DNA of 64,000 nt from Clostridia bacterium (GCA_045643465.1 JAZUKV010000002.1:3085-67084); one strand, 5' to 3'; counted from the first letter of the stretch, positions 5,808 to 63,269 are shown. Numbers and translations: made by a program. Notes: generated by a model from the sequence alone, not told the origin.

Positions 5808-13943
<8,136 letters not shown>

Positions 13944-22573: not shown

Positions 22574-22762
22574 TTAATAATAGAAGCTAAGTCTTTAAAG
22601 TGAAAATATGTATTCATTTTATGCACTTGGCTTTTTATTTATATAAGAAAGTTTGCATGATTGACATGAATAAAGTTATATGATTTAATTTTTAGTATAA
22701 ATGGTTCTTTGATAAGAATCATATTTGTAATTCAATATATGATTTATGAAAGGAGGATTTTT

Positions 22763-30339: not shown

Positions 30340-31170
30340 ATGTCAGATATTTGTTTTATTGGTGGAGATGCTAGAAATTGCTTATTAGCAAAAATGTTTG
30401 AGGAAGATGGAAAAAGTGTAATTAGGTGTGGATTAAAAGGACAAAATGTTTCTTTTGAAGAGATAAAATTATTAAGTTATGATATTATAATTACAGCAAT
30501 TCCTTTTTCAAATGATAAGGTTACAGTAAATTCAAGCTTAGAAGAAAAAATTCTAATTGAAGATTTTATTGCGAATATTAAATGCAAAACTATATATGGT
30601 GGAAAATTTGCACCAGATATTTTGAAAAGATTAGAGGAAAATGGAAATAAAGTAATAGATGTTATGAAAATAAATGAATTAGCTATAAAGAATGCAATTC
30701 CTACTGCTGAAGGTGTTATAAAGATTATTATAGAAAACACAGATATCACAATAAATGATAGCAATATTGCAATATTAGGATTTGGAAAAGTTGGTAAGAA
30801 GGTATCAGAGCTATTAAAGAAATTAGGAGCTAATATATTTGTGTATGATATAAATCAAGAAGAGGTTGCAAATATTAAAATGTACGGTTATAATGTATTA
30901 AAAGATATTAGCGATGGTTTAACTGGAAAAGATGTAATTGTAAATACGGTACCAGAAGTTATTATAAATCAAACGAATTTTGATAAAATAATGAAAGAAA
31001 CTCTAATAATTGATATTGCATCAAAACCTGGAGGAATTGATTATAGCTATCAAAACATTAATGATTATAAATGTATTCAGGCATTAGGGTTACCAGGTAA
31101 AATTGCTCCAAAAACAGCAGCTAAATATATAAAAGATATTATAGAAAGTTATAGTAATATGAGGTGTTAA
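30340..31170 (+). CDS. dpaA: Dipicolinate synthase subunit A (DpaA/SpoVFA) family NAD(P)-binding protein, with no dpaB partner nearby
   Basis: The DpaA signature motifs are present: IGGDAR, IPTAEG, GFGKVGKK, ASKPGGID and LPGKIAPKTA. Confidence 0.8.
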   Translation: MSDICFIGGDARNCLLAKMFEEDGKSVIRCGLKGQNVSFEEIKLLSYDIIITAIPFSNDKVTVNSSLEEKILIEDFIANIKCKTIYGGKFAPDILKRLEENGNKVIDVMKINELAIKNAIPTAEGVIKIIIENTDITINDSNIAILGFGKVGKKVSELLKKLGANIFVYDINQEEVANIKMYGYNVLKDISDGLTGKDVIVNTVPEVIINQTNFDKIMKETLIIDIASKPGGIDYSYQNINDYKCIQALGLPGKIAPKTAAKYIKDIIESYSNMRC

Positions 31171-32791: not shown

Positions 32792-35700
32792 ATGAAAAGA
32801 TTAAGTTTTTTGAAATGGGTAGTATTCATATGCATTTTTATAATAATTGGCTTATTCTTTAATGAAAGACAGTCAAATGCAGAAGGTACAAGGGATATGT
32901 ATGATTATACAATAGGAGGTTCAAGTACTTCATCAAATGTAAATGATAGATGGTTTTTTGATAATTATCTAGAATCTTTTACTGGTGATTCCGTTTACTA
33001 TAATGGAGACATTAAAAATAATACAGTTATAAATGTGTACGCAAATGAAGGTGAAAAGATAAAGTTTGCATCTTCTGGATCAGAATTGGAAATAACATAT
33101 CCAAGTGGCAGTAAAGAAAATGTGTCTATCGAGCAAATTAATGGGAGTGACGGATTTATTTATAGTTCTGTTGAAGAGAAAAGTAAATCATATAAATATT
33201 TAGAAATAGTTGCAACTGAAACTGGAGTGTATACATTTTATTTAAAAAATCAAAACTATTGTTCATCTGATACTAATGCAATGATAGATATTTATAATGT
33301 TAATAGTACACTTCCATTTTCATCTCAAGATAAGGATAGATATATTTCAGCGTGGGATATTCAAGTTGAAGGTTTAGATGGTAATGATATAAATGGTAGA
33401 GTTTGGATGGATTACGTTTCTGTGTATAGAGGATATAGTAAAACAAATAATAATTCGCATGGTAATGTTAAGCTACACATTCTTACAAGTGATGGATATA
33501 CTTATTTAATGAAATGCGATGGTATGGATCCTGGAGGAATGAATTTCTTTATAGGAACAAGAGGTTTAATTAATGCACAAACAAATGAAATTTTATACAA
33601 GTCTGTTCCAGATTATACGATAGGTAATTCTGTGTATATGCCAGTGCCAACGAATGGAGAAACTAAGGAAGATAAATATGGAAAAATTTTCTTTAATATT
33701 CCTTCAGATGATTTACCTGATTATATAAAGCCAGAAATAAAAGAAAGTCAAATTACAAAAAAAATAGAATTTAATGGAAGTGAACATAAAGGAGAAGAAA
33801 AAAGTTCTGGAATCTTTACTTTTTCTGTAGACCATAGTGCTTTGTATACTATTAGAATAAAAAATCAAAATACAAATGCAGTTGTAAGAGAGATAAGCAA
33901 TGTTGCATATGAAGGTGAAAATACAGTAATATGGGATGGAAAAGATTCTAGTGGTAATTATGCAATTCCAGGTACATATGTTGCTGAACTTGAAGTTAGA
34001 AATGGTGAATATCATTTTATACTAAATGATGTTGAAACTATCCATACAGGTATAACGATTACTTCAGAAGAAAATGAAAGTTCTACTATTTATTACGATA
34101 ACTCAGATATTGGTGGATATTCAAATTTAAGTGGTACAGATTCTAAAGAAACACCATTTAATTATTCGACGGATTTTGGAGATCATAAATTTATTAATAT
34201 ATGGGCATATACGAATGTAAAAAATTCAACTGAGTTTTTTATACTTGAAAATCAAACTATACAAAAATATATACTTAAAGGATTAGTTTTTAAGGATAAC
34301 GATAAAAATAGAGCATATAGTACATTAGTCGATGATCCTATAAGTGAAGTTAAAATAAAAATTATAAATGAAACAACTAGTGAGGAATTTGAAGCGTATA
34401 CTACATCAAATGGTGGGTTTAGTATAAATGTTCCTGTTGGAAGATATACTGTAAAAGTTGCAGATGAAAGTAAGCAGGATGTATTAGCTGGCTATACTGT
34501 AGTTACTAATAATGATGTTCAAACGGCTATTAATGTATCAAGTGATGTTACAATACAAGATATTGGATATGCAATGAATTACAAAAATATAAAGATAGTA
34601 AAAAAATGGGATGATGAAAATAATGCATTTGGTGCTAGACCAGATAAAATTCACATTAAATTGATGAATGGTGATGTCGTAGCTAGAGAAGCAGATGTTA
34701 CAGATGAAAATTGGGAATATATTTTTGAAAAAGTTCCAATATATGATGAGAATGAAGATATTATTAAGTACACTATTGTTGAAGATGATATTCAAAATTA
34801 TGAATTAGTTGAAACGACAAAAGTTCAGTCAGATGATATTGAGACATATATTTTAAAAAACAGAAGAGAAAAGACTAAGATTATTGTAAGAAAAGTATGG
34901 GATGACTTTAATAATAGAGATGGTTTAAGACCGGATTCTATAAATATTAATGTATTGTGTGGATTAAAATTAATTAAAGTGCAAGAGCTAAATGCAAAAA
35001 ATAATTGGCAATGTGAGATATTAGTAGATAAATACGATGCTTTAAATGAGGAACAACAATATATTGTTGTTGAAGATGAAATTGAAAATTATTCTTCAGA
35101 AAAAGAGATTTTAGAGGTTAAAGATAATACTCAAACAATACAGTTTACTAACACTCAAAAAACTATAGCAATTGAAGTGTTAAAAACTTGGATAGACAAT
35201 AACAATGCAGATAATACTAGACCAGATTCAATTACAGTACAAATTTTGAACAATAATAACATGGTAGCTGAACATGAGATTACAAAAGATGAAATGTGGA
35301 AATATACTTTTGTTGGATTACCAAAATATGATGATGATGGTAATGTAATTACATATGAGATAAAAGAAAATGCAATTGATGGGTACAGATTAAATAATAT
35401 AGATACAAATGTTTTAGTAACATCAGAAAATAATTTAGATACATTTGAGCTTATAAATGAATATGATAAAACGAATATTAAAGTTAATAAGATATGGGAT
35501 GATTTTGATAATGCTGAGAACACGAGACCCGAATTTATTACTGTTCAGATTTTGAATGGTGAATCAGTTGTAGTAGAGCGTGAAATTACAGCTGATGATA
35601 ATTGGGCATATACATTTAGAAATCTTAATAAATTTGATGAAGAAGGAAAGGAAATTAATTATTTTGTAAGGGAAACGGATTTAGCAGATTACGAAATGAC

Positions 35701-38700
35701 TAGTCTTAAAAATAATGGAAAGCTAATGAACGTTGATGAAGAAATAGAAATTGAAACATCAGATTATTGGAAAAAAAATGAAGATGGTACATGGCAAAGT
35801 ACAAATACTGCATATAGTGGTATTTCAGGGAAATTAAAATCAGAAATATTTGAAGTTACTCGTCCTACAACATTAAATTTTGAAATGTCTGTATCTTGCT
35901 ATCAAGCAAGTGGAAATGGGTTATATTATACACTTAAAAATATAGATACAGATACAACTATAGTATCAACAAACAATGCAAAAATAAGTGGAACATCAAG
36001 AGGAATAGTATATAATTATTTACAATATGATAAAGTAAGTATACCTCTCGAAAATCCTGGAAGATACCAAATTGAGTTTGTTATTAATAAATATCAAGAT
36101 GGAAGCGGAACATTATATGGGCTGAATTCAGGATTTGTTAGAAATCTTTCAGTTAAAAAAGAAGGAACAACTGAAGAAGTAGAAATTACAAACAAATATA
36201 CAAAGAAAAATATTACTGTTAAGAAAAATTGGGATGATTTTAATAATTATGATAATTCTAGACCAGAAACTATAACGGTACAATTAAAAAATGGGGAAAA
36301 TGTAGTTAGAGAGCATGAAATTAAGGAAGAAGATAACTGGGAATATACATTTAAAAATCTTGATGTTTATAATCAAGATGGAAGTGTAATTGAATATACA
36401 GTTTCTGAAAATAATGTTGAAGGTTATACACTTGTAGATCAAAATAATATTGGTAAAAGATATACAGTAAATGTACCAGTAACATTTGAGGAATCATCCA
36501 CTTGGATACAAAATGATGATGAAACATGGAAAAGTACAAACTCTGGGGATTATACTAGGGCAACTATAAAGTCCAATAAGTTTATTGTAAGAGATCCAAC
36601 GACTTTAAATTTTGATATGTCAGTATCTTCATATAATAGCTCTGCATATGGTTTATATTATATAGTTAAAAATGCAGATACAAACGTAACAATTGCAGAT
36701 ACAAGTAATAAGATGATATATGGAACATCAAGAGGATCTGTATATGAAAGTTTAAGTTATGATCATATTGAAATACCTATATCTGAAACTGGTGAATATA
36801 TAATTGAATTTTATTTTTATAAATATGGAAATGTAGGATTAAACGCAGGATTTTTTAAAAACATATATTTTAAACAAACAGGATATACTGAAGAAATAGA
36901 TATTACAAATAAATATAACCAAATAAATATTGAAGTTGAAAAAAAATGGGAAGATTTTAATAATATTAATAATGTAAGACCAGAGTCAATTAATGTTCAA
37001 TTAATGAATGGAGATACTGTTGTTAGAACAGGGGAGATTTTGGCAAGTAATGATTGGAAATTAAAATTTAACAACTTAGATAAGTATGATTCTAATGGAA
37101 ATAAAATAAATTATGTTATTAAAGAAGATAAACTTGAGAACTATGTACTTACAAAACAAGAAGAAACAGGATTGAAATTTGATGATATAAAAGAAATAGA
37201 TTTTGATACATCATATTATTGGAGTAAAAATGCAGATAATGTGTGGACAACTACTAATTCTAGTAAATTAAATTCAAAAGAAATAGTATTAACTGGTCCT
37301 TCTATTATTAGTTTTGATATGTCTGTATCATGTTATTCATCAAGTTCATGTGGTGCATATTATACATTGACTAATGTTGATACCAATCAGGTTGTAGTAA
37401 CAACTTCTAATAATAAATTAAATGGTACGTCTTTAGGAACTGTATATTCAAATTTAAAATATAATCATATAGAGATTCCTATTGAAACTGCAGGTAAATA
37501 TGTACTAGAATTAGGATATGAAAAATACGGATCAAATACAGGTGGAAGTTATGGATTAAATGCTCCTTACTTTAAAAATGTAAACTGTATTTCGCCTAGA
37601 AATACAGTGCAAATGGAGATTACTAACGAATTAAATACAACAAATTTGAAGATTAACAAAAAGTGGAATGATTTTGACAATAATTATAATGTAAGACCTG
37701 ATTCAGTTATGGTAGAAGTTTTTGATGGAGAAAATATAGTGGCAGAGCATGAAATTAAACAAGATGAAGATTGGACTTATACATTCAAAAATTTAAAGAA
37801 ATGCAACGAAAATGGAGAGCAAATAAAATATACTGTTAGAGAGAAAAATTTGGAAAACTATAAATTAGGTTTACAAGAAAACAAAGGATTTTTGTACGAT
37901 ATAGGACGAGATGTAGAAATAGATAGTTATAATTATTGGACAAAAAATACTGATGATGATACATGGAAATCAAATAATACATCTAGTGGTTCAACAGCAA
38001 CATTGACATCAAAGATAATAAATATAGATAAAGAATGTATTTTAAGTTTTGATATTTCAGTTTCTTCATATGATGTTTCAAGTAATTATGGATTAGGATA
38101 TACTTTAAAAAATGCAGATACAAATACTACTATTGTAACTACAACAAATGCCAGAATTAAAGGAACTTCAAGAGGAACATCATATGATAGCTTAAAATAT
38201 GATAGAGTGGAAATTCCAATACAAACACCAGGTAATTATATAATTGAATTTAACTATTATAGGTATTCATCATCTAGTGGTGGAAACTATGGCTTAAATT
38301 CGGGATTTGTTAAAAATATTAAAGTATTTGAAAAAGGTATTACTCAGGATATTGATATAACAAACGAATTAAATATTATAAATTTAAAAGTTGATAAAAA
38401 TTGGTTGGATGCTAAAAATGTTGAGGGCAAAAGACCAGAAAAAATTCATGTAAGTGTTATGAATGGGGAAAATCAAGTTGCAGAGCATGACATTACAGCA
38501 GCAGATGATTGGACATATACTTTTACAAATCTAAAAAAATATGATGAAAATGAAAATGATATAGAATATGTAATAAACGAAGATCCTATTGATAATTACG
38601 TTAAAACAAACCAAAAAGATAAAGGTTTTGCAATTGATAAAAGAGCTGACGTTTCTTTAGAATCTGTTAATGATTGGACATTAAGAGCTGATGGAACATG

Positions 38701-41700
38701 GGAAACTGTAATAACAAGTAACAAAACAGATATATTAAGAGGAAACTTTACTATTGAAGATCCTACTACATTAGAATTTGATATATCAGTTTCAACATAT
38801 AACAGCAAATCATATGGATTATATTATATATTGAAAAATATAGATACAAATGAAACAATAATAACAACAAATAATAATAAGCTGTATGGTACAAGTAGAG
38901 GAACAGTATACGAAAATTTACAATTTGAACATGTAGCTATTCCAATTGAGAAGGCAGGTAATTATCAACTTGAATTTAATTATTATAGATATCAAAATTC
39001 TACTGGTGGTTCAAATGGATTAAATACAGCTTATGTTAAAAATGTTTTTTATAAAGAAAAGGCAAATACAAAAAATATTGAAATTACCAACGAGTATGAC
39101 AAGGTTGATTTAATGGTTAGAAAAAATTGGAATGATTATTTTAATTATTATGAAAGTCAACCAGATGCAATACATGTTAAATTGATGAATGGAGATTCAC
39201 TTGTTGATGAACATGACATTACAAAAGAAAATGAATGGGAATATACTTTTACAAATATTGATAAATTCGATGAAAATGGAAATAAAATAAATTACACTAT
39301 TGTTGAGGATGCAGTTAATAATTATGATTTTGTTGATACAAAGAAAATTGAAAATCTTAAGGGGGCTAGTTCAAAAATTAATATGCAAAGTTCAGCACAG
39401 TGGAATGAAATTGATGATGGAACATGGCAAAGCAAAGGTGTAAGTAATGATAATATTGACAGAATAGTTTCAGAAAGTTTTACAGTTGAAAAAGCAGGTG
39501 AAATAGATTTTGATGTTTCAGTTTCAGCTTATAATGTAAATTCATATGGATTGTATTATGAAGTAAAAAATGTTGAAACTGGTGAAACAGTAGTTACAAC
39601 TGTTAACAATAAATTGGTAGGTATAGATAGAGGAATTGAATATGCTAGTCTAAAATATGACCATATAAATATTCCAATAGAGCAACCAGGAGTATATCAA
39701 ATAGAGTTTTGCTATAGAAGATATACTGGAAGCACAGGTGGAAGTTATGGATTAAATGCAGGATTTTTTAAAAACCTTAGATATACAGAATATAAAAATA
39801 TAGAAATTATAGAAATAACAAATCAATATAATAAAGTAAATGTAGAAGTAACTAAAATTTGGAGAGATGCAGATAATAAATATGGGGTTAGACCAGAGTC
39901 AATTCATGTTAAACTATTTAATGGACAAAATGTTGTAGCTGAGCATGATATAACAGCTGAAAATAATTGGTCATATGTATTTAGAGATATTGATAAAAAC
40001 GATGAAAATGGGAATAAAATTAATTATAGTGTTTTGGAAGATTCAGTAGATGAATATATGTACGTTGGACAAAAAAATAATGGATTATTACGTAATACGC
40101 AAATTGATTTAAAATTCGAAGAATCTGATCAATGGAAACAAAATGATGATGGAACTTGGCAATCTTTAGATTTCATGTATGAAAATGTGGCTAAATCGGA
40201 GCCTTTTAAAATTACAGAGCCAGTAACATTAAGTTTTGATGCTTCTGTGTCAACTTATTCAAGAACGGGTTATGGCTTATATTATGTATTAACTAATTTA
40301 GATACAAATACTGAAATTGTAAATACTAATAGTAATAGGATAAACGGAACTGATAGAGGTACTGTTTATGAAGATTTACAATATGACAATATAAAAATCG
40401 AAATTAATGAGCCTGGAAGATATCAATTAAAATTCATACATCAAAGATATGGATATACAGGTGGTAGTTATGGATTAGATGCAGGTTTCTTTAAAAATGC
40501 TAAATATTTTATTTCAACAAATACAGAAGGTATTGAAATCACAAATGAGTTAAATTCAAAAAATATATGTGTAACAAAAACATGGGATGATGATAATAAT
40601 CTTACTGGCAACAGACCAAGCTCAATTAATGTAAGTCTATATGGAAATGGAAGTTTGGTAGATAGCAAGGAAATAACTTCGGATAATGATTGGAATGTAA
40701 AATTTGAAAATGTAAAAAAATATGATACAAATGGGGAAATTATTAAATATGATGTTACTGAAGAAGATGTTGACAAATACATTTGTACAAACATTGAAAA
40801 AACAGGTAATATTGATAAATATAGTCTTGAAGGAAAAACGATTGATCAATGGAGCAAAAATGATGATGGAGTATGGGAAAGCACAAGTTCGAATAATTAT
40901 AATCCCGCAAATATAACATTTAAAGATATAGATGTTATTGAAAAAGGTATATTGAGTTTTGATATGTCAGTTTCATCTTTTGAATATGAAGGATATGGAT
41001 TATCATATTCTGTTAAAAATGTAAATACGAATTCTGTAATTGCAGATACAACATGGAATAAAATTAATGGTATATCAAGAGGAAATGAATATTCAAACTT
41101 AAAATATGAGCATGTTGATATTCCTATAGATGAACCAGGTAAATATGAAATATCATTTATTTTTAATGGATATTACAATTATGTTGGTGGTAATTATGGA
41201 TTAAACAAAGGTTTTATCAAAAATATATCATTTGAAGAATCTATAGCAGCTGAAAAATTTAATTTAACAAATAAATGTAATGTTAAAAATGTATACTTAA
41301 AAAAGGTTTGGGATGATAATAATAACGAGAAGAATGCAAGACCAAGTTCTATAACAGTAAATGTTAAAAATGGTACAGAAATTGCTGCAACTACAACTGT
41401 TTCGGAAAGTGATAACTGGGAAGCTGTTATAAATAACTTACCTATATGTGATACAAATGGTGAGATTAATTATACTTTTGAAGAGGCACCAATAGAAAAT
41501 TACAAATTAGAATCTATTGAGTTAAAAGACGATGAAAATTATGTAACAATGAATGAAAATGAAGAAGAGTATCCATGGATTTATGAAAACGGAATATGGC
41601 AAAGTGGTAACAAAGGTATAGATTATACTTCATCAAGAGCAACAACAAATAATTTTGAGATAACGGATGGACAATCTCTACATTTTGAATATGCTATTTC

Positions 41701-44700
41701 ATCAGAGAATACATATGATAAAGGGTTGTATTATATATATAATGCTAATACGGGAGAATGTGTAAAATCAAGTGGATACATAAGTGGTGTAACAAGTGGA
41801 TCTACTATTGATACGTTAGTTTTTTCAGAAGAGAATATATATTTGGAAACAGGAACATATTATATTGAATTAAGATATGACAAAGATTCAAGTAATTCTG
41901 ATGGTGCTGATGTATTTTGCATAAAAAATATTTACGTTAAAGATGATCAGCCAACTAAACGACTAGTATTAACTAATAAATATGAAAAATCTAAGGATGA
42001 GCCTGAATTAGTAACTATTTCTGGAACAAAAACTTGGGTAAATGACCATGATAATGCAGATAATACGAGACCAGAAAAAATTACGATCAATTTAATGAAT
42101 GGAAATGATGTTATTGAAAGTAAAGATGTAACACCTGATAATGATGGTAACTGGACATATTCTTTTGAAGCATATAAATATGATGGAGATGGTAATGAAA
42201 TTGCATACACTATCAACGAAGAAAGTATAAATGATTATAGTGCAGAAGTTTCTGGAAGTATTGTTGATGGATTTGAAATCACAAATACATACACAGGTAG
42301 AATAATGAAAACATTTATAATAAACAAGGTGTGGGATGATGAAAATAATAAAGCAAATAAACGTCCAGCATCTGTAAATGTTTCTGTATATAGAGATATT
42401 GAAGGAGTAAAAACTTTAGTAAAAACATATACAATAACAAGTGAAGATATATCAGCAAATACATGGAGTTATGATGTAACTGATTTAGATAAATATGATG
42501 AAAATGGAAATGAAATAGTTTATACATTTGAAGAAGAAGAAATGGGAAGTATATTCTATCAATTCGCTGAATCAAATATTGAAGATAATAAAGTTACTAT
42601 AACGAATAAATTTGAAGTTCCAGATACAAAGGTAAATGCAAAAGTTATAAAAGTTTGGAACGATGAAGAAAACAAGGCAGGTAAGAGATCAAAAGATGTA
42701 ACAGTTACGTTATATGCAAATGGAGAGATTACAGATAAAACATATGTATTAAATGCAGAAAATGTTGTAAACACCGAAAATAGTTGGGAGTATACATTTG
42801 AAGGTTTGAATAAATATGATAATAATGGAGATTCAATTTCATATTCAGTGCAAGAAGTTCTTGACAACAATAATTACGAAATGTCATCAAAGACAGAGTT
42901 TGTTCATGAAATGGGATTTGTATCAACAATTATAAATACATTTAAGAAAAATACGGAGCTAAGAGATATCGTAGTTAAAAAAGTATGGGATGATGAAGGT
43001 AATAAAGCAGGAAAAAGACCAAATGAAATAACTGTTAATCTATTAAATGGGGAAATAATTAAAACTGCGGTTTTGAATGCCGAAAATAACTGGACAGTTA
43101 CATTTGAAGGAATACCAAAATATAATGACCTAAATAATGAAATAGAATATACTGCCGAAGAAACTAATATTACATCAATTTTTTATAAACAAACAAATAA
43201 TACTGGAATTGCAAATGAAAGTGGTGAGATAACAATAACAAATAAATTTGAAGTTCCAGATACTAAAGTGACATTAGATGTTGAAAAAGTATGGGACGAT
43301 AATGACTCAGAAAAAAGACCTGAATATATAAGTGTTCAGTTATTGGCAAATGGAACTGCTGAAGGAACAACAATTACATTAGACAGTACTAAACAATGGG
43401 CTTATACATATAGTGATTTAATTAAATATGATGAAAATGGTAATGAAATTAACTATACAGTAAAAGAGCTTGCAACAAATAATATTTATTATAAAGCTGA
43501 AAATGCTAAATATGATAAAGTTGGAAATAAAGTTACTATAACAAATAAATTTGTAGTACCAGATGAAAAGGTTAAAGTTAAAGTTAACAAGATATGGGAT
43601 GATAATGCTGATAATGCAGAAAAAAGACCTGAGACTTTGGAAATTGAATTATCAAATGGCCAAAAATATATTATGTCTGCAAGTGATGCTGATGTAGTAG
43701 ATAAAAATATTTGGACATATACATTTGAAAACTTAGAAAAATACAATGCACAGAACGGTGACGAAATTGTGTATACTGCAGTTGAAAATTTTGATAATGA
43801 AAATTATACTTCTACAGTGGAAAATAAAGTTGAGAATGGTGTAAAGGTAATTACATTTACAAATAAATATGCTCCAAATACTGAAAAAAGAGATATATTA
43901 GTTGAAAAAATTTGGGAAGACAGTAACAATGTAAATAACAAGAGACCAACATCAATAATTGTAAAATTATCAGATGGTATAACACAAGTTGGTGAAAAAA
44001 CAATGTATGCTGACCAAAATGGTAACTGGACATGCACGTTCAAGGATTTACCAAAATATGATAGTAAAAACAATGAAATTAAATATATAGCAACTGAAAT
44101 ATGCGATTCAATATTCTATGTAGAAAAAACTCATGAAAACGTAATGAACTCAGATGGTAAAATAACAATAACAAATAAATTTGATGTACCAGATGATACT
44201 ATAGATATAGCCGTGAATAAAGTTTGGGATGATGAAAACAACAGAGATGGTAGAAGACCTGAAATTCTAACAATTGTAATTAAAAATGATGCAGATGAAG
44301 AGCTAAAGAGAATAAGTATTTCTGGTAATGAAAAGACTAATGAAGGCTGGAATGGAACATTCAAGGACATGAGAAAATATGATGAAACAACAGGAGATGA
44401 AGCTAAATATAATATAGATGAAGTTGACGAAAATAATAATCTTGAATTATATATTAAGAGCGTTAATGGAACAACTATTACTAATACATATAAATTAAAT
44501 AATCCAAGAATAGAAGATCCAGTAACATCAAAGAATGGCCCAGAGTTTATTTATAGTAGTGATGAAATATTAGAATATACTGTTACTTATACCGCAACGA
44601 TAGTTGATTTCTATGGTGATGCTAATATTAAAATCGTTGACCAATTACCATATGAAATTGACGAAAATTTATCTGATTTAAATGATGGTACTTATGATAA

Positions 44701-45337
44701 AGCTACAAAACAAATTGTTTGGGAAGAATCAATAAACGGAATTGATACGTATACAAATGGAAATAAAGATATAAAGATCGTTAAAAAATTTAAAGTTAAA
44801 TATTTAAATCTTAATTATAACAAAATTAAAATTGATAACATTGCAAAAACTGAGACTATACTTAAAGAGACTGAAATTAAAAGCGAAAGTGAAGATAAAC
44901 ATACTACTGAACAGTCAATTTTTGGTAAGGTTATTGTTACATATATTGACATTGACACAGACGAACAGATTGGTGATAAAATAGTTCTTACTGGAAAACC
45001 AGGCGAAGAGTATGAGGACATAAGAGAAGATCCTCAAGATTATATATTTGTAAAAGATACAAATAATAGTAAAGGAAATTTTATTGAGGGAACTATAGAT
45101 GTCAAATATATGTATAAAAAGATAAAACACGATAAAACAGATGACAAAGATGAAGAAGATGATGAAGAAAAAGATGAGAAAATAAATGTAAAAGAAGTTC
45201 TAGAAGAAAATGTAACAGAAAATACAACGGAATATACTTTAGAGAGTGTAAAAACTGGAGATAATATAGTAATATATGTTGCTCTATGTAGTGTATCTAT
45301 AATCGTGATTGCATGCAGAAAAAGAAAAATTTACTAA
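32792..45337 (+). CDS. Giant 4181-aa cell-wall-anchored adhesin-like protein. Its modules run, from N- to C-terminus:
- signal peptide
- FlgD-Ig-like and SdrD-B-like N-terminal modules
- about 21 Cna-B-type domains
- nine copies of an unrecognised roughly 150-aa domain, interleaved with the Cna-B domains
- a DUF11-like domain
- a MucBP domain
- the SVKTGDN sorting signal
   Basis: The N-terminus is MKRLSFLKWVVFICIFIIIG. Cna-B units have the form KVWDD.NN..G.RP.SI.V.L.NG......W.Y.F..L.KYD..G..I.YTV.E and are joined by ITNKF/ITNEL linkers carrying the Asn expected for isopeptide bonds. The MucBP motif is IVTYIDIDTDEQIGDKIVLTGKPGEEY...GTIDVKYMY. The C-terminus is SVKTGDN followed by a hydrophobic stretch and RKRK. 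Confidence 0.9.
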   Translation: MKRLSFLKWVVFICIFIIIGLFFNERQSNAEGTRDMYDYTIGGSSTSSNVNDRWFFDNYLESFTGDSVYYNGDIKNNTVINVYANEGEKIKFASSGSELEITYPSGSKENVSIEQINGSDGFIYSSVEEKSKSYKYLEIVATETGVYTFYLKNQNYCSSDTNAMIDIYNVNSTLPFSSQDKDRYISAWDIQVEGLDGNDINGRVWMDYVSVYRGYSKTNNNSHGNVKLHILTSDGYTYLMKCDGMDPGGMNFFIGTRGLINAQTNEILYKSVPDYTIGNSVYMPVPTNGETKEDKYGKIFFNIPSDDLPDYIKPEIKESQITKKIEFNGSEHKGEEKSSGIFTFSVDHSALYTIRIKNQNTNAVVREISNVAYEGENTVIWDGKDSSGNYAIPGTYVAELEVRNGEYHFILNDVETIHTGITITSEENESSTIYYDNSDIGGYSNLSGTDSKETPFNYSTDFGDHKFINIWAYTNVKNSTEFFILENQTIQKYILKGLVFKDNDKNRAYSTLVDDPISEVKIKIINETTSEEFEAYTTSNGGFSINVPVGRYTVKVADESKQDVLAGYTVVTNNDVQTAINVSSDVTIQDIGYAMNYKNIKIVKKWDDENNAFGARPDKIHIKLMNGDVVAREADVTDENWEYIFEKVPIYDENEDIIKYTIVEDDIQNYELVETTKVQSDDIETYILKNRREKTKIIVRKVWDDFNNRDGLRPDSININVLCGLKLIKVQELNAKNNWQCEILVDKYDALNEEQQYIVVEDEIENYSSEKEILEVKDNTQTIQFTNTQKTIAIEVLKTWIDNNNADNTRPDSITVQILNNNNMVAEHEITKDEMWKYTFVGLPKYDDDGNVITYEIKENAIDGYRLNNIDTNVLVTSENNLDTFELINEYDKTNIKVNKIWDDFDNAENTRPEFITVQILNGESVVVEREITADDNWAYTFRNLNKFDEEGKEINYFVRETDLADYEMTSLKNNGKLMNVDEEIEIETSDYWKKNEDGTWQSTNTAYSGISGKLKSEIFEVTRPTTLNFEMSVSCYQASGNGLYYTLKNIDTDTTIVSTNNAKISGTSRGIVYNYLQYDKVSIPLENPGRYQIEFVINKYQDGSGTLYGLNSGFVRNLSVKKEGTTEEVEITNKYTKKNITVKKNWDDFNNYDNSRPETITVQLKNGENVVREHEIKEEDNWEYTFKNLDVYNQDGSVIEYTVSENNVEGYTLVDQNNIGKRYTVNVPVTFEESSTWIQNDDETWKSTNSGDYTRATIKSNKFIVRDPTTLNFDMSVSSYNSSAYGLYYIVKNADTNVTIADTSNKMIYGTSRGSVYESLSYDHIEIPISETGEYIIEFYFYKYGNVGLNAGFFKNIYFKQTGYTEEIDITNKYNQINIEVEKKWEDFNNINNVRPESINVQLMNGDTVVRTGEILASNDWKLKFNNLDKYDSNGNKINYVIKEDKLENYVLTKQEETGLKFDDIKEIDFDTSYYWSKNADNVWTTTNSSKLNSKEIVLTGPSIISFDMSVSCYSSSSCGAYYTLTNVDTNQVVVTTSNNKLNGTSLGTVYSNLKYNHIEIPIETAGKYVLELGYEKYGSNTGGSYGLNAPYFKNVNCISPRNTVQMEITNELNTTNLKINKKWNDFDNNYNVRPDSVMVEVFDGENIVAEHEIKQDEDWTYTFKNLKKCNENGEQIKYTVREKNLENYKLGLQENKGFLYDIGRDVEIDSYNYWTKNTDDDTWKSNNTSSGSTATLTSKIINIDKECILSFDISVSSYDVSSNYGLGYTLKNADTNTTIVTTTNARIKGTSRGTSYDSLKYDRVEIPIQTPGNYIIEFNYYRYSSSSGGNYGLNSGFVKNIKVFEKGITQDIDITNELNIINLKVDKNWLDAKNVEGKRPEKIHVSVMNGENQVAEHDITAADDWTYTFTNLKKYDENENDIEYVINEDPIDNYVKTNQKDKGFAIDKRADVSLESVNDWTLRADGTWETVITSNKTDILRGNFTIEDPTTLEFDISVSTYNSKSYGLYYILKNIDTNETIITTNNNKLYGTSRGTVYENLQFEHVAIPIEKAGNYQLEFNYYRYQNSTGGSNGLNTAYVKNVFYKEKANTKNIEITNEYDKVDLMVRKNWNDYFNYYESQPDAIHVKLMNGDSLVDEHDITKENEWEYTFTNIDKFDENGNKINYTIVEDAVNNYDFVDTKKIENLKGASSKINMQSSAQWNEIDDGTWQSKGVSNDNIDRIVSESFTVEKAGEIDFDVSVSAYNVNSYGLYYEVKNVETGETVVTTVNNKLVGIDRGIEYASLKYDHINIPIEQPGVYQIEFCYRRYTGSTGGSYGLNAGFFKNLRYTEYKNIEIIEITNQYNKVNVEVTKIWRDADNKYGVRPESIHVKLFNGQNVVAEHDITAENNWSYVFRDIDKNDENGNKINYSVLEDSVDEYMYVGQKNNGLLRNTQIDLKFEESDQWKQNDDGTWQSLDFMYENVAKSEPFKITEPVTLSFDASVSTYSRTGYGLYYVLTNLDTNTEIVNTNSNRINGTDRGTVYEDLQYDNIKIEINEPGRYQLKFIHQRYGYTGGSYGLDAGFFKNAKYFISTNTEGIEITNELNSKNICVTKTWDDDNNLTGNRPSSINVSLYGNGSLVDSKEITSDNDWNVKFENVKKYDTNGEIIKYDVTEEDVDKYICTNIEKTGNIDKYSLEGKTIDQWSKNDDGVWESTSSNNYNPANITFKDIDVIEKGILSFDMSVSSFEYEGYGLSYSVKNVNTNSVIADTTWNKINGISRGNEYSNLKYEHVDIPIDEPGKYEISFIFNGYYNYVGGNYGLNKGFIKNISFEESIAAEKFNLTNKCNVKNVYLKKVWDDNNNEKNARPSSITVNVKNGTEIAATTTVSESDNWEAVINNLPICDTNGEINYTFEEAPIENYKLESIELKDDENYVTMNENEEEYPWIYENGIWQSGNKGIDYTSSRATTNNFEITDGQSLHFEYAISSENTYDKGLYYIYNANTGECVKSSGYISGVTSGSTIDTLVFSEENIYLETGTYYIELRYDKDSSNSDGADVFCIKNIYVKDDQPTKRLVLTNKYEKSKDEPELVTISGTKTWVNDHDNADNTRPEKITINLMNGNDVIESKDVTPDNDGNWTYSFEAYKYDGDGNEIAYTINEESINDYSAEVSGSIVDGFEITNTYTGRIMKTFIINKVWDDENNKANKRPASVNVSVYRDIEGVKTLVKTYTITSEDISANTWSYDVTDLDKYDENGNEIVYTFEEEEMGSIFYQFAESNIEDNKVTITNKFEVPDTKVNAKVIKVWNDEENKAGKRSKDVTVTLYANGEITDKTYVLNAENVVNTENSWEYTFEGLNKYDNNGDSISYSVQEVLDNNNYEMSSKTEFVHEMGFVSTIINTFKKNTELRDIVVKKVWDDEGNKAGKRPNEITVNLLNGEIIKTAVLNAENNWTVTFEGIPKYNDLNNEIEYTAEETNITSIFYKQTNNTGIANESGEITITNKFEVPDTKVTLDVEKVWDDNDSEKRPEYISVQLLANGTAEGTTITLDSTKQWAYTYSDLIKYDENGNEINYTVKELATNNIYYKAENAKYDKVGNKVTITNKFVVPDEKVKVKVNKIWDDNADNAEKRPETLEIELSNGQKYIMSASDADVVDKNIWTYTFENLEKYNAQNGDEIVYTAVENFDNENYTSTVENKVENGVKVITFTNKYAPNTEKRDILVEKIWEDSNNVNNKRPTSIIVKLSDGITQVGEKTMYADQNGNWTCTFKDLPKYDSKNNEIKYIATEICDSIFYVEKTHENVMNSDGKITITNKFDVPDDTIDIAVNKVWDDENNRDGRRPEILTIVIKNDADEELKRISISGNEKTNEGWNGTFKDMRKYDETTGDEAKYNIDEVDENNNLELYIKSVNGTTITNTYKLNNPRIEDPVTSKNGPEFIYSSDEILEYTVTYTATIVDFYGDANIKIVDQLPYEIDENLSDLNDGTYDKATKQIVWEESINGIDTYTNGNKDIKIVKKFKVKYLNLNYNKIKIDNIAKTETILKETEIKSESEDKHTTEQSIFGKVIVTYIDIDTDEQIGDKIVLTGKPGEEYEDIREDPQDYIFVKDTNNSKGNFIEGTIDVKYMYKKIKHDKTDDKDEEDDEEKDEKINVKEVLEENVTENTTEYTLESVKTGDNIVIYVALCSVSIIVIACRKRKIY
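35730..41950 (+). repeat. Nine-fold array with a roughly 725-bp period. Each unit is one Cna-B domain plus one unrecognised domain with consensus W.KN.DGTWQS...L.FD.SVS.Y....GL.Y.LKN.DTN..I..T.N.K..GTSRG..Y..L.Y....IPI...G.Y..EF.Y.RY...GG.YGLN.GF.KN.
   Basis: The periodic motifs DGTWQS / DDTWKS / DGVWES and so on occur at about 35.79, 36.52, 37.24, 37.96, 38.69, 39.42, 40.15, 40.87 and 41.59 kb. The copies are only about 35–50% identical, so this is ancient duplication. Confidence 0.8.
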
Positions 45338-45370
45338 ACTGAAACAATTAAATAATTAGAATATGCATAA

Positions 45371-45397
45371 AGGCGGGGTTTTTTAATGAAAAACCTC
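45371..45397 (+). terminator. Terminator-like hairpin after the giant gene
   Basis: The stem gcggggttttt / aaaaacctcgc has one mismatch. The T-run is inside the stem and not after it, so terminator function is uncertain. Confidence 0.4.
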
Positions 45398-45500
45398 GCT
45401 TAAATTATATATATTGGGTAAAACAATCTACAATTATTGTTTTTTTTATTTTTTTACTTGACTTTTTAGATATCTTTTGATATTATAATTTTGTTGTTAT

Positions 45501-55900: not shown

Positions 55901-58138
55901 TTAGTGTGAAGAAGATCCAATATCTTCTTGAAGAGTTATTGTTATTACAGTTCCTTCATTAACTTCGGTTCCAGCGATAGGGTCTTGACTTATTACTTTT
56001 CCAGATCCTACAACATTTATATTTAAATTATGTGATGATAATGCTATTTTAGCAGAATTGTAAGATTGTCCTTTTAAATCAGGTACTGCTGTTTTTGTTT
56101 TTTCATTTCTTGTTTCATCAGAATATAGCTCTATTATTGCTCCTTCAACTAATGAAGTTCCAGCTTTAGGAATTTGTTCAGTAATAATTGATGTTGCACT
56201 ACATGTGAAATTGCATTTGAATCCTTGCTTTTCTAAGGCTGCTTTAGCATCTGAAGCAGTTTTATTAGTAACATCATGTAATGTTGTTTTTGTAATTTTT
56301 GTTGTTGAACCAGTTGTAGTTTGATTTATAGTATTATTTGAAGGTATATCTAAATAAGGTAATACTTCTGATAATATCTGACTAACCACAGGGGCTGCAA
56401 TGTGTCCTCCAAAGTGATCTTTACCTTTAGGATTATATAGTGTCAATAGAACAACTAGTTGTGGATCATCAGCAGGGGCTACTCCAACGAAAGATGATAC
56501 ATATCCTGCGGTAGATCCTTCTGTTGCTTCAGATGTTCCTGTTTTTCCTGCAACTCTATAGCCAGAAACTTGACCATATTTTCCACCACCAACAGTAACA
56601 ACAGATTCCATCATATCTAACATTGTTTTTGATGTTTCTGAAGAAATGACTTGTCTAACTTCTTTTGGTTCAATAGTTGTTACTGATCCAGTATCTGAAT
56701 CTTTTATTTCTTTTACAATTCTAGGTTGCATTAGGGTACCATCATTTGCTACAGCTGAAACTGCAGTAATCATTTGAAGGGGGGTAATAGTAAATCTTTG
56801 TCCAAAAGAAATTGTGGCCAATTCTACAGGTCCTACTGAATTAATATTATGGAATATTCCTGTAGCTTCCCCAGATGTTGCAATACCAGTTTTATTAAAT
56901 AATCCAAATGCTTCAAAATATTTATAAAGAGTATTAACTCCTATTTTTTGTCCCAATTGGATAAATGCAGGGTTACAAGAATTTTGAAGTGCTTGTCTTA
57001 AAGATTGATATCCATGACCAGCTGTGTTAGCACAACTTATATGTCTATCTGCAACGTCTTGGGCTCCGGTACAACGGAAAAGTCCAGGAGTATCCGGGTC
57101 TACAATATGCTCTTCTAAGGCAGTTGAAGCCATAACGACTTTAAAAACTGATCCGGGTTCATATGTATTAGAAATAGCTGTGTTTCTCCACATTTTTTGA
57201 AGTGCATCACTTTGGGCAGATGATGATAAATCATTCCATGTTGCGGATAAATTTTCATTAGGTTGGAAAGGTGTATTTAAATCATAATCTGGATATGTTG
57301 CCATAGCTAAAATATCTCCAGTTTTTGGATTCATAATAATGACATTTCCACCATTTAAACATTGATTTGTTATACATGCCTGCTCTAAGTATTTTTCAGC
57401 AATTGATTGAATGTTTATATCAATTGTTAATGTTAAATTACTTCCATTTTGAGGTGCGTAATATTGTGCATCTTCATTTGAGATTAAATCTTGAGTAGCA
57501 TCTTGGGCTGTTGTTATTTTTCCAGGTGTTCCAGCTAATGTATTATCCCAATAATATTCTAATCCAGTTAATCCTTGATTATCACTACCACAAAAGCCTA
57601 TTAAGTTTGAGGCTAAATTATAATAAGGATAGTATCTTTTTGTATCTTTATCTATATTTATACCAGAAGAAATTTTATTTTCTTTCATCCAAGATTCTAG
57701 CTCTGCTACTTTATTTTTTTCAACTTTTTGTATTATTGTTTCAACAGAATTTTGGCTTTTAACTTTTTCTAATGTTTCATCATAATTTAATTCAAAGATT
57801 GTAGAAAGTCCTCTGGCTATTTTTTCTTGCAATACTTTAGTATCATCATCAGATTTTTTTATAAATTTTGAAGGATTTATTGTGATAGTATCAACATCAG
57901 CACTTATTGCTAAGGCTGTACCTGTAGAATCATAAATCGTACCTCTTTTTGCACTAATAATTCTACTAGTTGTTTGTTGCTTGGTTGCTGATTCTTTTAA
58001 TGAATTTCCTTCTACAAATTGTATAATAGCTATTTTTACTATAAGAAATAAAAATACTATAAATAAAATAACTGATAATGAAAAAAATCTTTTAGGTTTT
58101 GAAAATTTATAATTTTCTTCATCTTTTGATTTTTCCAT
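55901..58138 (-). CDS. Class B penicillin-binding protein with two C-terminal PASTA domains (PBP2B-like)
   Basis: It has an N-terminal transmembrane segment and the motifs STFK (GSVFKV), SCN and KTGT, followed by two PASTA repeats. Confidence 0.9.
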   Translation of the reverse strand: MEKSKDEENYKFSKPKRFFSLSVILFIVFLFLIVKIAIIQFVEGNSLKESATKQQTTSRIISAKRGTIYDSTGTALAISADVDTITINPSKFIKKSDDDTKVLQEKIARGLSTIFELNYDETLEKVKSQNSVETIIQKVEKNKVAELESWMKENKISSGINIDKDTKRYYPYYNLASNLIGFCGSDNQGLTGLEYYWDNTLAGTPGKITTAQDATQDLISNEDAQYYAPQNGSNLTLTIDINIQSIAEKYLEQACITNQCLNGGNVIIMNPKTGDILAMATYPDYDLNTPFQPNENLSATWNDLSSSAQSDALQKMWRNTAISNTYEPGSVFKVVMASTALEEHIVDPDTPGLFRCTGAQDVADRHISCANTAGHGYQSLRQALQNSCNPAFIQLGQKIGVNTLYKYFEAFGLFNKTGIATSGEATGIFHNINSVGPVELATISFGQRFTITPLQMITAVSAVANDGTLMQPRIVKEIKDSDTGSVTTIEPKEVRQVISSETSKTMLDMMESVVTVGGGKYGQVSGYRVAGKTGTSEATEGSTAGYVSSFVGVAPADDPQLVVLLTLYNPKGKDHFGGHIAAPVVSQILSEVLPYLDIPSNNTINQTTTGSTTKITKTTLHDVTNKTASDAKAALEKQGFKCNFTCSATSIITEQIPKAGTSLVEGAIIELYSDETRNEKTKTAVPDLKGQSYNSAKIALSSHNLNINVVGSGKVISQDPIAGTEVNEGTVITITLQEDIGSSSH

Positions 58139-61200: not shown

Positions 61201-62073
61201 ATGGAAAATTTATATGATAAAACAAAATTTTTACTTAACAAGTATAAATTAACGGCAAATAAAAATCTAGGACAAAACTTTTTAATAAATGATGATGTAG
61301 TAAATAAAATTGTTGAATCAGCTGATTTATCTGATGAAGATTTAGTAATTGAAATTGGTCCTGGATTAGGAAATTTAACAGAATATTTATTAGAAAAAGC
61401 AGGTAAAGTAATAGCTATAGAGCTAGATGATAGAATGCTAGAAATATTATCAGATAGATTTACTTTATATAATAATTTTGAAGTAATTCATGAAGATGTA
61501 TTAAAGGTAGATTTAAATAAAATAATTGAAGAGAGCAAAAACAAAGGTCTAAAAAGAGCTAAGATTGTAGCTAATTTACCATATTATATAACAACTCCAA
61601 TTATTATGAAATTATTGGAAGAAAAGTTAGATATAGAAAGTATTACTGTTATGGTTCAAAAGGAAGTGGCAGATAGACTAATTGCAACACCTGGTGATAA
61701 ATTATCTGGAGCAATTACTTATTGTGTATACTATTATGCAACTTCACAAAATGTAACTATTGTAGAAAATAATTCATTTATACCAGAGCCATCAGTAGAT
61801 TCAGAGGTAATAAAATTAACAATACGTAAATCAAGCCCGGTAAATTTAGTAAATGAAGAACATTTTTTTAAATTAATAAAAGCTAGTTTTATGCAAAGAC
61901 GAAAAACTTTAATAAATGCATTAGTTAACGGAAATATAGTTAGAGATAAAAATGAAGCCAAAGATCTTTTTGATAAGTTGGAACTAGATTATAATACGAG
62001 AGGAGAAACTTTAACAATAGAAGAATTTGCAAGTATTTCTAATTATTTAATGTCGCAAAAAAATAAGAATTAG
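61201..62073 (+). CDS. rsmA: 16S rRNA (adenine1518-N6/adenine1519-N6)-dimethyltransferase
   Basis: The motifs LGQNFLIND, the SAM-binding EIGPGLGNLT and NLPYYITTPI are all present. Confidence 0.93.
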   Translation: MENLYDKTKFLLNKYKLTANKNLGQNFLINDDVVNKIVESADLSDEDLVIEIGPGLGNLTEYLLEKAGKVIAIELDDRMLEILSDRFTLYNNFEVIHEDVLKVDLNKIIEESKNKGLKRAKIVANLPYYITTPIIMKLLEEKLDIESITVMVQKEVADRLIATPGDKLSGAITYCVYYYATSQNVTIVENNSFIPEPSVDSEVIKLTIRKSSPVNLVNEEHFFKLIKASFMQRRKTLINALVNGNIVRDKNEAKDLFDKLELDYNTRGETLTIEEFASISNYLMSQKNKN

Positions 62074-62085: not shown

Positions 62086-62802
62086 ATGAATCAGATATTA
62101 GCAACAGATAAATTATATGTTACACAGAAATTGAAAAATAAAAAAAATAGATATAAAATTCAATTTTTTGCATCTTTAATTTTAGTAGTTATTTTTTCAG
62201 GTTGGTATATTCATACAGAAATAGATAAAAATTCTTCTGAAGCTGTATCTCAAGATATATTAGATGATATAAGAATAGATGAAAATAACAGTTTTGATAA
62301 AACAACTGCAAGTTCACAACCATTAATCGTAGCTATGGAAGATGATGATGTGCCACAACAAAATGTAAATATTGAATCAAGTGCTACATATACAGATAAT
62401 AAAACAGGTATAACATATACATATGAATCAATATTAAGTATTCCATCTTTAAAAATTGAATATCCAGTTTTAACAGAAACATCAGATGAATTATTAAAAA
62501 TTTCTTTGAATAAATTCTGGGGAGGTAGTCCAAATACTGTAGGAAATTATGTTATAGTAGGTCATAATTATAAAAGCGGAAAAATGTTTGGAAAATTATC
62601 TCAAATTAATATAGGTGATAAGGTTAATTTAAAAGATATGTCTGGCAAAAGTTTAACTTATGAAGTATATAATAAATATGTTGTTTATCCTGATAATGTT
62701 GCTTGTACAAGTCAGATGACTCAAGGATTAAAAGAAATGACATTAATTACTTGTACAAATGGGGGAAAACAAAGATTAGTAGTAAAATGTAGAGAAGTAT
62801 AA
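62086..62802 (+). CDS. Sortase (238 aa) with an N-terminal signal-anchor; candidate class B-like enzyme
   Basis: The catalytic motif is TLITCT, followed by the conserved Arg (VVKCREV). The conserved His is in VGHNYKSGKMFGKL. The N-terminal transmembrane segment is FFASLILVVIFSGWYI. Confidence 0.85.
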   Translation: MNQILATDKLYVTQKLKNKKNRYKIQFFASLILVVIFSGWYIHTEIDKNSSEAVSQDILDDIRIDENNSFDKTTASSQPLIVAMEDDDVPQQNVNIESSATYTDNKTGITYTYESILSIPSLKIEYPVLTETSDELLKISLNKFWGGSPNTVGNYVIVGHNYKSGKMFGKLSQINIGDKVNLKDMSGKSLTYEVYNKYVVYPDNVACTSQMTQGLKEMTLITCTNGGKQRLVVKCREV

Positions 62803-62805
62803 AAT

Positions 62806-62845
62806 AAAACTACACAAATTTATTTGTGTAGTTTTATTTATTTTT
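62806..62845. terminator. Bidirectional terminator between the convergent sortase and XRE genes
   Basis: A perfect stem (aaactacacaaat / atttgtgtagttt) is flanked by A/T runs. Confidence 0.75.
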
Positions 62846-63160
62846 AATAATTAATTTTGCAATATCATAAATAAGTTTTTGATTTTCTTTTGAAGAATTT
62901 TTTAATAATTCATTAAATTCATCTGATAAATAGTTTGTTGAATCAGTACTTGTTCCATTTAATATAGTTCCTTCATCAATATTTAGGATTGAGCATATTT
63001 CACTTAATCTTGTTAAATTTATGTGAGTAGAACCTCGCTCGATTCTACTAATAAATGCAACAGAAACATTTAATTTTTCTGCTAAGTTTTCTTGTGTTAA
63101 ATTTTTTTCTATTCTAGATTTACGTATTCGCTCTCCAATGATTCTATAATCTAATGCCAT
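62834..63160 (-). CDS. XRE-family helix-turn-helix transcriptional regulator
   Basis: The HTH is LTQENLAEKLNVSVAFISRIERG. The ATG at 63160 with RBS gagaggtg is preferred over the upstream ATG at 63175. Confidence 0.8.
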   Translation of the reverse strand: MALDYRIIGERIRKSRIEKNLTQENLAEKLNVSVAFISRIERGSTHINLTRLSEICSILNIDEGTILNGTSTDSTNYLSDEFNELLKNSSKENQKLIYDIAKLIIKNK

Positions 63161-63269
63161 ATAATCACCTCTCATAAATAAAAAGATATAGCAATTAAAT
63201 TTTAAAGTACAGAAATCTATAAGTTAATATATACTTGAAAATTAAAAATATACGTAAATACTTAAATTT

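Follow-up and report, generated by a model that had tools for sequence, protein, structure and literature searches.

We wondered whether the C-terminal tails of two giant adhesins encoded on a 64,000-nucleotide stretch of Clostridia DNA (GCA_045643465.1 JAZUKV010000002.1:3085-67084; hereafter the window) are sorting signals and, if so, which sortase would read them. Both tails carry the motif [S/N]VKTGDN, in which valine stands where most sorting signals have proline, and a sortase gene lies elsewhere in the window. Judged from the sequence, both tails are very probably genuine C-terminal sorting signals, a proline-less variant of the [N/S]PKTGD type. For the enzyme, we favor a class B-type sortase encoded outside the window; the reading that combines genuine signals with such an enzyme has, in our estimate, a probability of roughly 0.45.

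The first adhesin is truncated at its 5' end. Its frame is open from the first base of the window and extends on the plus strand to position 5529, which gives at least 1842 aa. The Pfam domains comprise four SpaA domains, DUF285/PARCEL and BspA-type leucine-rich repeats (LRR), three DUF7601 domains and FctA (an isopeptide domain), and the protein also matches strep_pil_rpt and pilus_ancill_1. The translation of positions 5230-5529 ends in KSVINVKTGDNIVIYEYILVISIIAIAIVIKKK. Here the motif N-V-K-T-G-D (5440-5457, plus strand), with a predicted cleavage between Thr (5449-5451) and Gly (5452-5454), precedes a hydrophobic segment of 19 residues (IVIYEYILVISIIAIAIVI, 5461-5517), the basic tail KKK (5518-5526) and the stop codon, which completes the region at 5529. 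The second adhesin has 4181 aa (32792-45337, plus strand), with about 20 Cna_B repeats and, near the C-terminus, MucBP by Pfam. It begins with MKRLSFLKWVVFICIFIIIGLFFNERQSNAEG, which resembles a signal peptide, as the precursor of a sorted protein should. The translation of 45101-45400 gives the end of this protein as TLESVKTGDNIVIYVALCSVSIIVIACRKRKIY. In this tail, S-V-K-T-G-D (45245-45262, plus strand) is predicted to be cut between Thr (45254-45256) and Gly (45257-45259), and is followed by a hydrophobic segment of 17 residues (IVIYVALCSVSIIVIAC, 45266-45316), the basic tail RKRKIY (45317-45334) and the stop codon, up to 45337. Thus, translation bore out a preliminary description of this DNA, according to which both giant proteins end in [S/N]VKTGDN, a hydrophobic segment and a basic tail, with Val in place of Pro, so that the motif is neither LPXTG nor (S/P)PXTG. 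The only correction is trivial: the Ser codon (45245-45247) begins 3 bases before the start given there.

Both adhesin tails fit the general layout of a sortase signal, with xxxTG located 20-45 residues from the C-terminus, a hydrophobic segment and at least two basic residues. Among the open reading frames (ORFs) of 80 aa or more in the six frames of the window, four terminate in a hydrophobic segment with two or more basic residues: both adhesins, an FtsW/RodA protein and one antisense ORF. The adhesin-type sorting tails of the window are thus these two only. VKTGD likewise occurs, over all frames of the window, in the two adhesin tails only, and LPxTG is absent from every frame. The ten residues VKTGDNIVIY are common to both tails. 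The DNA of the two copies differs at synonymous sites in the Thr (ACT/ACA), Asp (GAT/GAC) and Asn (AAT/AAC) codons. These differences point to selection on the peptide rather than to a fresh DNA copy, and because of them we rejected the idea that the common residues stem from recent gene conversion. In addition, the contents of the proteins agree with their tails, as Cna_B in 20 copies with MucBP, and SpaA, FctA and DUF7601, are typical cargo of sortase anchoring.

The motif recurs in other proteins. When the C-terminal 1000 aa of the truncated adhesin served as the query of a homologue search, about 10 of the 120 matches listed were informative; the others were mostly BspA/DUF285 repeat proteins of Bacteroidales and other groups. 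The informative homologues, from other gut metagenomes, end in NVKTGD (P0122), STKTGD (P0124, P0128), GVKTGD (P0133) and NAQTGD (P0121, P0123), each time followed by [IV][IVM]IY, a hydrophobic segment and basic residues. At metagenome locus L082 a second adhesin ends in NVKTGD, and at locus L205 a DUF11-type adhesin with a TVRTGE end stands beside a NAQTGD protein. A tail-only profile of 42 positions was also compared with 1.84 billion representative proteins, in a search that used no word index (E<=0.001). Seventeen proteins were found, and the motif was C-terminal in 16 of them; in the remaining match it was N-terminal and not a tail. The 16 tails were STKTGD (six), SVKTGD (three), NPKTGD (three) and one each of NVKTGD, SLKTGD, NIKTGD and SPKTGD.

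We compiled 23 proline-less tails, with positions counted from the predicted scissile bond between P1 and P1'. P4 was Ser in 14, Asn in six, Thr in two and Gly in one. P3 was Val (10), Thr (8), Ala (2), Ile (2) or Leu (1), and never Pro; P2 was Lys in 19, with Gln and Arg in two each. The scissile pair itself was invariant, with Thr at P1 and Gly at P1' in 23/23, and P2' was Asp in 19/23. The sequence consensus is [S/N/T/G]-[V/T/A/I/L]-[K/Q/R]-T-G-(D). The sortase-substrate architecture that the preliminary description had assigned to the tails is thereby strengthened by the full layout, the typical cargo and the recurrence in homologues. A second family of proline-less tails was also observed on DUF11/SpaA adhesins (L205 4732-8049 and 8854-13245; L008 3-8756). 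It has the form ...GEDDIDDAPV[MI]L[ST][VI][KR]TG[SAE]..., has no Asp at P2' and shares one contig with the KTGD family (L205).

Standard models do not recognize these tails. They lie outside LPXTG, having Ser or Asn at P4 and Val at P3, and when the two window tails and three close homologue tails were compared with TIGR01167, a threshold as loose as E<=10 produced no match. The whole adhesins matched neither TIGR01167 nor Pfam Gram_pos_anchor (PF00746). Three of four NPKTGD tails, which apart from the proline closely resemble them, pass TIGR01167 (16.5-19.3, cutoff 15.9). Of the features of class B signals, the window tails have Asn or Ser at P4, where N, S or P is expected; they have Val and not Pro at P3, and they gave no match to the srtB_target model TIGR03063. 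A DNA scan for the KTGD pattern with Val in front returned only non-tail matches, in viral contigs, and a literature search on SVKTG/NVKTG-type strings found no sortase paper.

One reading of these results is that the tails are plain membrane anchors or decayed signals that no sortase cuts. This is the current view of NVQTG in Clostridioides difficile CbpA, which was first proposed as a sorting signal and is now doubted as a substrate (PMC4155245, PMC4371152, PMC5569036). The failure of the anchor hidden Markov models (HMMs) on the tails agrees with it, as does the report that classes A, B and D are unable to accept Ala at P3 (PMC5148588). The conservation of the tails, however, argues against it. 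Thr-Gly is kept in 23/23 tails and K-T-G-D in 19/23, the motif always stands directly before the hydrophobic segment, and the cargo is unrelated and comes from many samples. A decayed signal would not keep exactly the residues of the scissile bond. Furthermore, the two window copies differ at synonymous sites, and sortases are present and conserved in the lineage. An invariant Thr-Gly on unrelated cargo from many samples is to be expected of a sortase signal and not of a plain membrane anchor, and we consider the latter improbable. The preliminary description would have preferred plain anchors if the other predicted substrates of the genome used LPXTG and the window sortase belonged to a class strictly specific for LPXTG. 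The tails of the relatives are proline-less too, and the sortase falls in no class with known strict LPXTG specificity.

We then considered where proline-containing counterparts of the tails occur. An unconstrained scan of metagenome DNA for KTGDx[IV][IVM]IY gave at least 120 matches, which were dominated by the motif VKTGDRVIIYMP. Among the matches listed, true tails were present in 13 loci, and all 13 had N-P before the Lys, never L-P. Tails of the form NPKTGDNIVIY..., almost identical to those of the window apart from the proline, are found on low-GC metagenome contigs next to class B sortases. At L128, L171 and L192, the NPKTGD gene immediately precedes a sortase gene whose product scores above the cutoff of the class B model TIGR03064 (179-210 bits, cutoff 153.75). 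With lengths of 376-517 aa, the NPKTGD proteins linked to class B enzymes are small. A class B sortase paired with a TPKTG substrate also occurs within the same broad clade, 6-9 kb from a sortase of the window's own family, which is linked to rsmA; this was seen at L058 and L077 and, as a partial copy, at L064. As a separate observation, two IMG/VR contigs labelled viral (L210, 227 kb, and L211, 203 kb) carry a fragment of a class B-like sortase (tblastn with the L192 enzyme as the query, E ~1e-10).

The same scan revealed a trap for motif screens. The motif VKTGDR[VI][VI]IYMP is conserved in metagenome ORFs (L086, L087, L090 and others). The ORFs with this motif or VKTGDRVIIYMP are presumably acetyl-CoA synthetase-type adenylate-forming enzymes, whose motif swamps DNA and peptide searches for VKTGD tails.

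We favor a class B-type enzyme because Asn or Ser at P4 together with K-T-G-D is a class B signature, and because the proline-containing counterparts reside in class B operons. Under this reading, the adhesin would be exported by Sec and held in the membrane by its hydrophobic segment and basic tail. A sortase would then cut between Thr and Gly and join the Thr carboxyl to peptidoglycan, as the anatomy and conservation of the tails suggest. The cutting enzyme would be a class B-type sortase encoded outside the window rather than the enzyme at 62086-62802, an assignment that we infer.

Several points weigh against the class B assignment. There is no class B sortase in the 64-kb window, although this says little because the window is a few percent of a genome. 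There is also none in the fetched loci of the proline-less lineages (L002-L011, L082, L083, L204-L208 and L213-L224). Giant Cna_B/SpaA adhesins are usually the cargo of housekeeping sortases. Ordinary LPXTG signals, too, often have Lys at P2 and an acidic residue at P2'. At L205, NAQTGD and TVRTG tails occur together, so proline has been lost in two unrelated tail families, for which a single altered housekeeping enzyme is the more economical explanation. At L008, where the sortase is 67% identical to that of the window, rsmA and the sortase gene directly follow the genes for three adhesins, whose tails have SVKTG, TVRTG and SIKTG. Finally, the class B enzyme SrtB of C. difficile did not cleave NVQTG in the hands of two laboratories (PMC4155245, PMC4371152, PMC5569036).

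The sortase gene of the window (62086-62802, plus strand) starts 16.7 kb past the stop codon of the 4181-aa adhesin gene. Its product of 238 aa has a conserved cytoplasmic peptide (MNQIL...) at the N-terminus and a single transmembrane helix, and an acidic linker leads to the catalytic domain of about 135 aa. The preliminary description had reported a 238-aa sortase with TLITC...R at these positions, and Pfam Sortase (PF04203) agreed, with 90.2 bits against a cutoff of 26.6, which places the protein in the superfamily. Over 41 homologues, H160, C223 (in TLITC), R230 and R236 are invariant. The AlphaFold model (mean predicted local distance difference test score, pLDDT, of 73) shows a sortase beta-barrel after an N-terminal helix and the acidic linker.

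The class of this sortase was less clear. Among the NCBIfam models, the 238-aa sortase passed only the generic TIGR01076 (54.6, cutoff 39.35). It stayed below the class C model NF033745 (65, cutoff 160), the class D models NF033746 (34.2, cutoff 165) and NF058671 (37.2, cutoff 140), the class E model NF033747 (44.5, cutoff 160) and the class F model (23.1, cutoff 166); no class A model was listed. The class B model TIGR03064 gave no match at E<=0.01, and the catalytic domain is only about 135 aa long. The 50 listed Foldseek matches in the PDB and the PDB sequence search contained no class B structure. Foldseek matched classes A, C, D and E about equally (E ~1e-10), and the best PDB match by sequence was Clostridium perfringens SrtD (4d70), at 39 bits. 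The position of the Tyr that in class E enzymes lies in the b3/b4 loop (S3 subsite) is Phe144 in the alignment of the window sortase, as in C. perfringens SrtD (CpSrtD). NCBI names a homologue of the window sortase simply "sortase". A class C or pilus identity was considered and rejected, since the enzyme lacks a lid and a C-terminal helix, its sequence stopping two residues past a conserved KCRE, and since its neighbors are housekeeping genes and not a pilus operon. By these profile scores, it is a bona fide sortase outside the thresholds of classes A-F. The choice between class B and class D that the preliminary description had left to HMMs was therefore answered by neither, as no class threshold was reached.

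The family of this sortase is widespread: a database search at E<=1e-5 gave 3169 proteins, and the MNQIL pattern identified relatives in at least 263 GTDB species genomes. Almost all of these are gut or rumen metagenome-assembled genomes labelled Clostridia or Clostridium. Clostridium sp. CAG:492, CAG:245 and CAG:780 are among the carriers of the rsmA-linked family. The gene rsmA (ksgA; 61201-62073, plus strand) is the conserved upstream neighbor of the sortase and lies directly upstream of it in 59 of 80 related loci. On the other side is a gene for an XRE-family helix-turn-helix (HTH) protein (HTH_3; 62834-63175, minus strand), convergent with the sortase gene. The block yifB-dprA-yraN-rsmA-sortase-XRE-SPFH is syntenic in the closest relatives, and the neighborhoods of the sortase homologues P0067 and P0002 show mostly the same housekeeping synteny. 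From its distribution and gene order, the 238-aa sortase is a core, housekeeping-type gene. The XRE neighbor noted in the preliminary description is indeed adjacent and belongs to the conserved synteny; no evidence of regulation was found in this arrangement.

The cytoplasmic N-terminus of the sortase (62086-62160 in the window) is conserved in its own right, an observation that extends to all 80 related sortase loci. The sequence MNQIL[VA]T[DE]KLY[VI]T.KLKKKK.YK is near-invariant in the 41 aligned homologues, which are 54-100% identical overall. In those 41, M1, N2, Q3, I4, L5 and Y11 are invariant. Conservation does not extend to the extracellular linker. Such a pattern suggests a conserved cytoplasmic partner or a localization signal.

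The preliminary description regarded this enzyme as the obvious candidate for the cognate sortase. Stated in full, this explanation holds that the rsmA-linked 238-aa sortase is the housekeeping sortase of the lineage, has evolved to read [S/N/T]-[V/T/I/A]-[K/R/Q]-T-G, and anchors both adhesins. It is the only sortase in the window, it is intact with His, Cys and Arg invariant, and it belongs to a core family that keeps its synteny. The adhesins that abut rsmA and a window-type sortase at L008, the proline loss in two tail families on the contig L205 and the absence of class B sortases from every fetched locus of the proline-less lineages all count in its favor. In addition, the loops of the sortase differ between subfamilies. 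The 11 closest sortases (66-72% identity) have [DN]V[AE]CTSQxT[NQ]G[LQ] in the b6/b7 loop (GL in 10 of 11) and FWGGSPN in the b3/b4 loop, and relatives at about 50% identity have D[TV]xCTSQLTNG[RK] and YWGxxPN in these loops.

Other observations on the same sortases speak against it. Proximity is weak evidence in these genomes, since some 40% of the window consists of adhesin genes. Substrates were found within 10 kb of the sortase in only one of the 10 closest GTDB sortase loci. Neighboring proteins of the relatives at about 50% identity end in LPQTG (L032) and in IPQTG (L060, directly adjacent). At L215, from the species of P0067 and with the loop signature of the window type, the sortase gene lies 4.3 kb from the gene for a papain-family protein whose LPATG motif precedes a hydrophobic segment and a basic end. 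CpSrtD, the nearest relative by sequence among solved structures, prefers LPQTGS, and Asn or Ser at P4 is a class B hallmark. Sortase-motif pairs are known for only about six genomes. "Obvious" was therefore too strong a word: the enzyme is encoded by a housekeeping gene adjacent to rsmA, proteins with LPQTG, IPQTG and LPATG occur near its relatives as well as SVKTG-type proteins, and the proline-containing counterparts of the tails are class B-linked. We regard anchoring by the window sortase as possible, with the odds somewhat against it. Its broader form is unlikely, namely that a lineage of uncultured gut Clostridia, to which Clostridium sp. CAG:492 is related, re-coded its general signal to [S/N/T]-[V/T/I/A]-K-T-G, read by the rsmA-linked sortase. 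If true, it would provide a natural pair with new P4/P3 specificity, orthogonal to LPXTG for protein ligation, and would account for orphan motifs such as NVQTG of C. difficile CbpA.

The surface proteins near rsmA-linked sortases deserve a further description. Peptidase_C1 surface proteins with canonical LPATG/LPQTG anchors were observed at L215 (3537-5654) and L032 (17317-20400), in distant clade members. The papain-family gene of L215 is a strain-specific insertion between the PBP (penicillin-binding protein) gene and yifB. Another strain of the P0067 species (L222) has a second unclassified sortase of 206 aa (5420-6040) beside a protein with thioester (TED) and SpaA domains and an LPRTG end. 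This 430-aa protein ends in ...KKLPRTGF and the stop codon (region 5420-7348), and beyond it none of the frames has a hydrophobic segment or basic tail, which is odd beside a dedicated sortase. The LPATG protein of L215 and the LPRTG protein of L222 therefore indicate that LPXTG-type signals coexist with the window-type sortase subfamily. The 206-aa sortase could serve the LPXTG-type proteins of the lineage, a point in favor of the rsmA-linked enzyme as the reader of the proline-less tails.

This 206-aa enzyme also raises the idea that another sortase outside the window, not of class B, such as a relative of the L222 protein or a pilus-type enzyme, reads the tails. A second unclassified sortase does exist in a closely related species, and the truncated adhesin matches FctA, strep_pil_rpt and pilus_ancill_1. 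The adjoining substrate of the L222 sortase, however, ends in LPRTG and not in xVKTG, and neither adhesin gene has a pilus operon or class C features near it in the window. We consider this very improbable, and a class B-type sortase outside the window remains our preferred reader of the two tails.

The window as a whole, with a G+C content of 26-31%, is ordinary chromosome of an uncultured gut Clostridia member. Adhesin genes are followed by topA, priA, def, fmt, hrcA-grpE-dnaK-dnaJ, ppa, dpaA and a ROK-family gene, after which comes the gene for the 4181-aa adhesin. Next is a division and cell-wall cluster (mraZ, rsmH, a DivIC-like gene, a PBP gene, a Mur ligase gene, mraY, ftsW and murG), a second PBP gene on the minus strand, and then yifB, dprA, yraN, rsmA and the sortase gene, with the XRE and SPFH genes on the minus strand. 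Because the gene order puts the cell-wall cluster between them, the gap of about 17 kb between adhesin and sortase is this cluster. Besides the two adhesins, a giant protein of 2711 aa (5808-13943) has BspA-type LRR_5, SpaA and a PARP-like acidic repeat. Its translated C-terminus is without a sorting tail, though a signal peptide is present, and a 433-aa LRR_5 protein (14378-15679) has no sorting tail. A 253-aa HNH endonuclease ORF (22709-23470), located between fmt and hrcA amid housekeeping genes, may be a mobile insertion. The gene similar to dipicolinate synthase subunit A (DpaA_N domain, 30340-31170) and a SpoVD-like PBP gene (55901-58138) suggest that the organism is a spore-former.

Since the standard anchor models miss these tails, the largest adhesins of a widespread, uncultured group of gut Clostridia are not recognized as wall-anchored. 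An enzyme naturally able to take Val, Thr or Ile at P3 would extend the rules of sortase specificity and give an orthogonal ligation tag. The tails also bear on why C. difficile CbpA has an NVQTG that its own sortase does not cut.

Finally, we compared the tails and the sortase with known systems. About 90% of known sorting signals have proline at P3, which the enzymes of classes A, B and D reportedly need (PMC5148588). The generic LPXTG anchor (TIGR01167, Gram_pos_anchor) has the same tripartite layout as the window tails, which are without its Leu and its Pro. Class B signals are summarized as (N/S/P)PXTG, and the NAKTN of Listeria SrtB is a signal without proline (PMC8225981). The class B signals of Bacillus anthracis IsdC (DNPKTGDE) and C. 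difficile (SPKTG/PPKTG) resemble the window tails in Asn or Ser at P4, Lys at P2, Thr-Gly, Asp at P2', and the hydrophobic segment and basic residues that follow (PMC11987632, PMC4155245). The P2' Asp of DNPKTGDE is required by B. anthracis SrtB (PMC11987632). The related tails described here differ in having Val, Thr, Ile, Ala or Leu at P3 instead of Pro. Their cargo consists of giant multi-domain adhesins with no class B sortase seen nearby, whereas class B cargo is small and operon-linked. The L. monocytogenes SrtB signals (NAKTN/NPKSS) are read by a class B enzyme and have Asn at P4, Ala at P3 and Lys at P2, and NAQTGD is found among the homologues here; the Listeria signal, however, ends in T-N and not in T-G-D, and it is carried by two small operon-encoded proteins.

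CbpA (CD3145) of C. difficile is alike in having Asn-Val-x-Thr-Gly on a collagen-binding-type adhesin of a Clostridia member, and the literature search found no other published xVxTG candidate signal. Its NVQTG is a single orphan that SrtB does not cut in vitro, whereas the window motif recurs in many proteins and samples and has Lys at P2. The LAXTG of class E is an established signal without proline (PMC5148588). This actinobacterial system shares with the tails a P3 residue other than proline and offers the example of an adapted housekeeping sortase; it differs in having Leu at P4 and Ala only at P3, and its enzyme has the b3/b4 specificity Tyr where the window sortase has Phe144. CpSrtD prefers LPQTGS and rejects Ala at P3 (PMC5148588). 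It is like the window sortase in its small catalytic domain and in the Phe at the b3/b4 S3 position, and the LPQTG and IPQTG proteins near distant relatives of the window sortase match its LPQTGS preference. The likeness is remote, and the window sortase has its own conserved MNQIL N-terminus and linkage to rsmA. In view of NVQTG, LAXTG and NAKTN, the motif is less unprecedented than the preliminary description implied, although its proline-less character stands. What is new here is a recurrent signal of giant adhesins with Val, Thr or Ile at P3, and a sortase family that is very widespread and falls outside classes A-F. Neither amounts to a new category, and together they constitute a variation on a very well known system.

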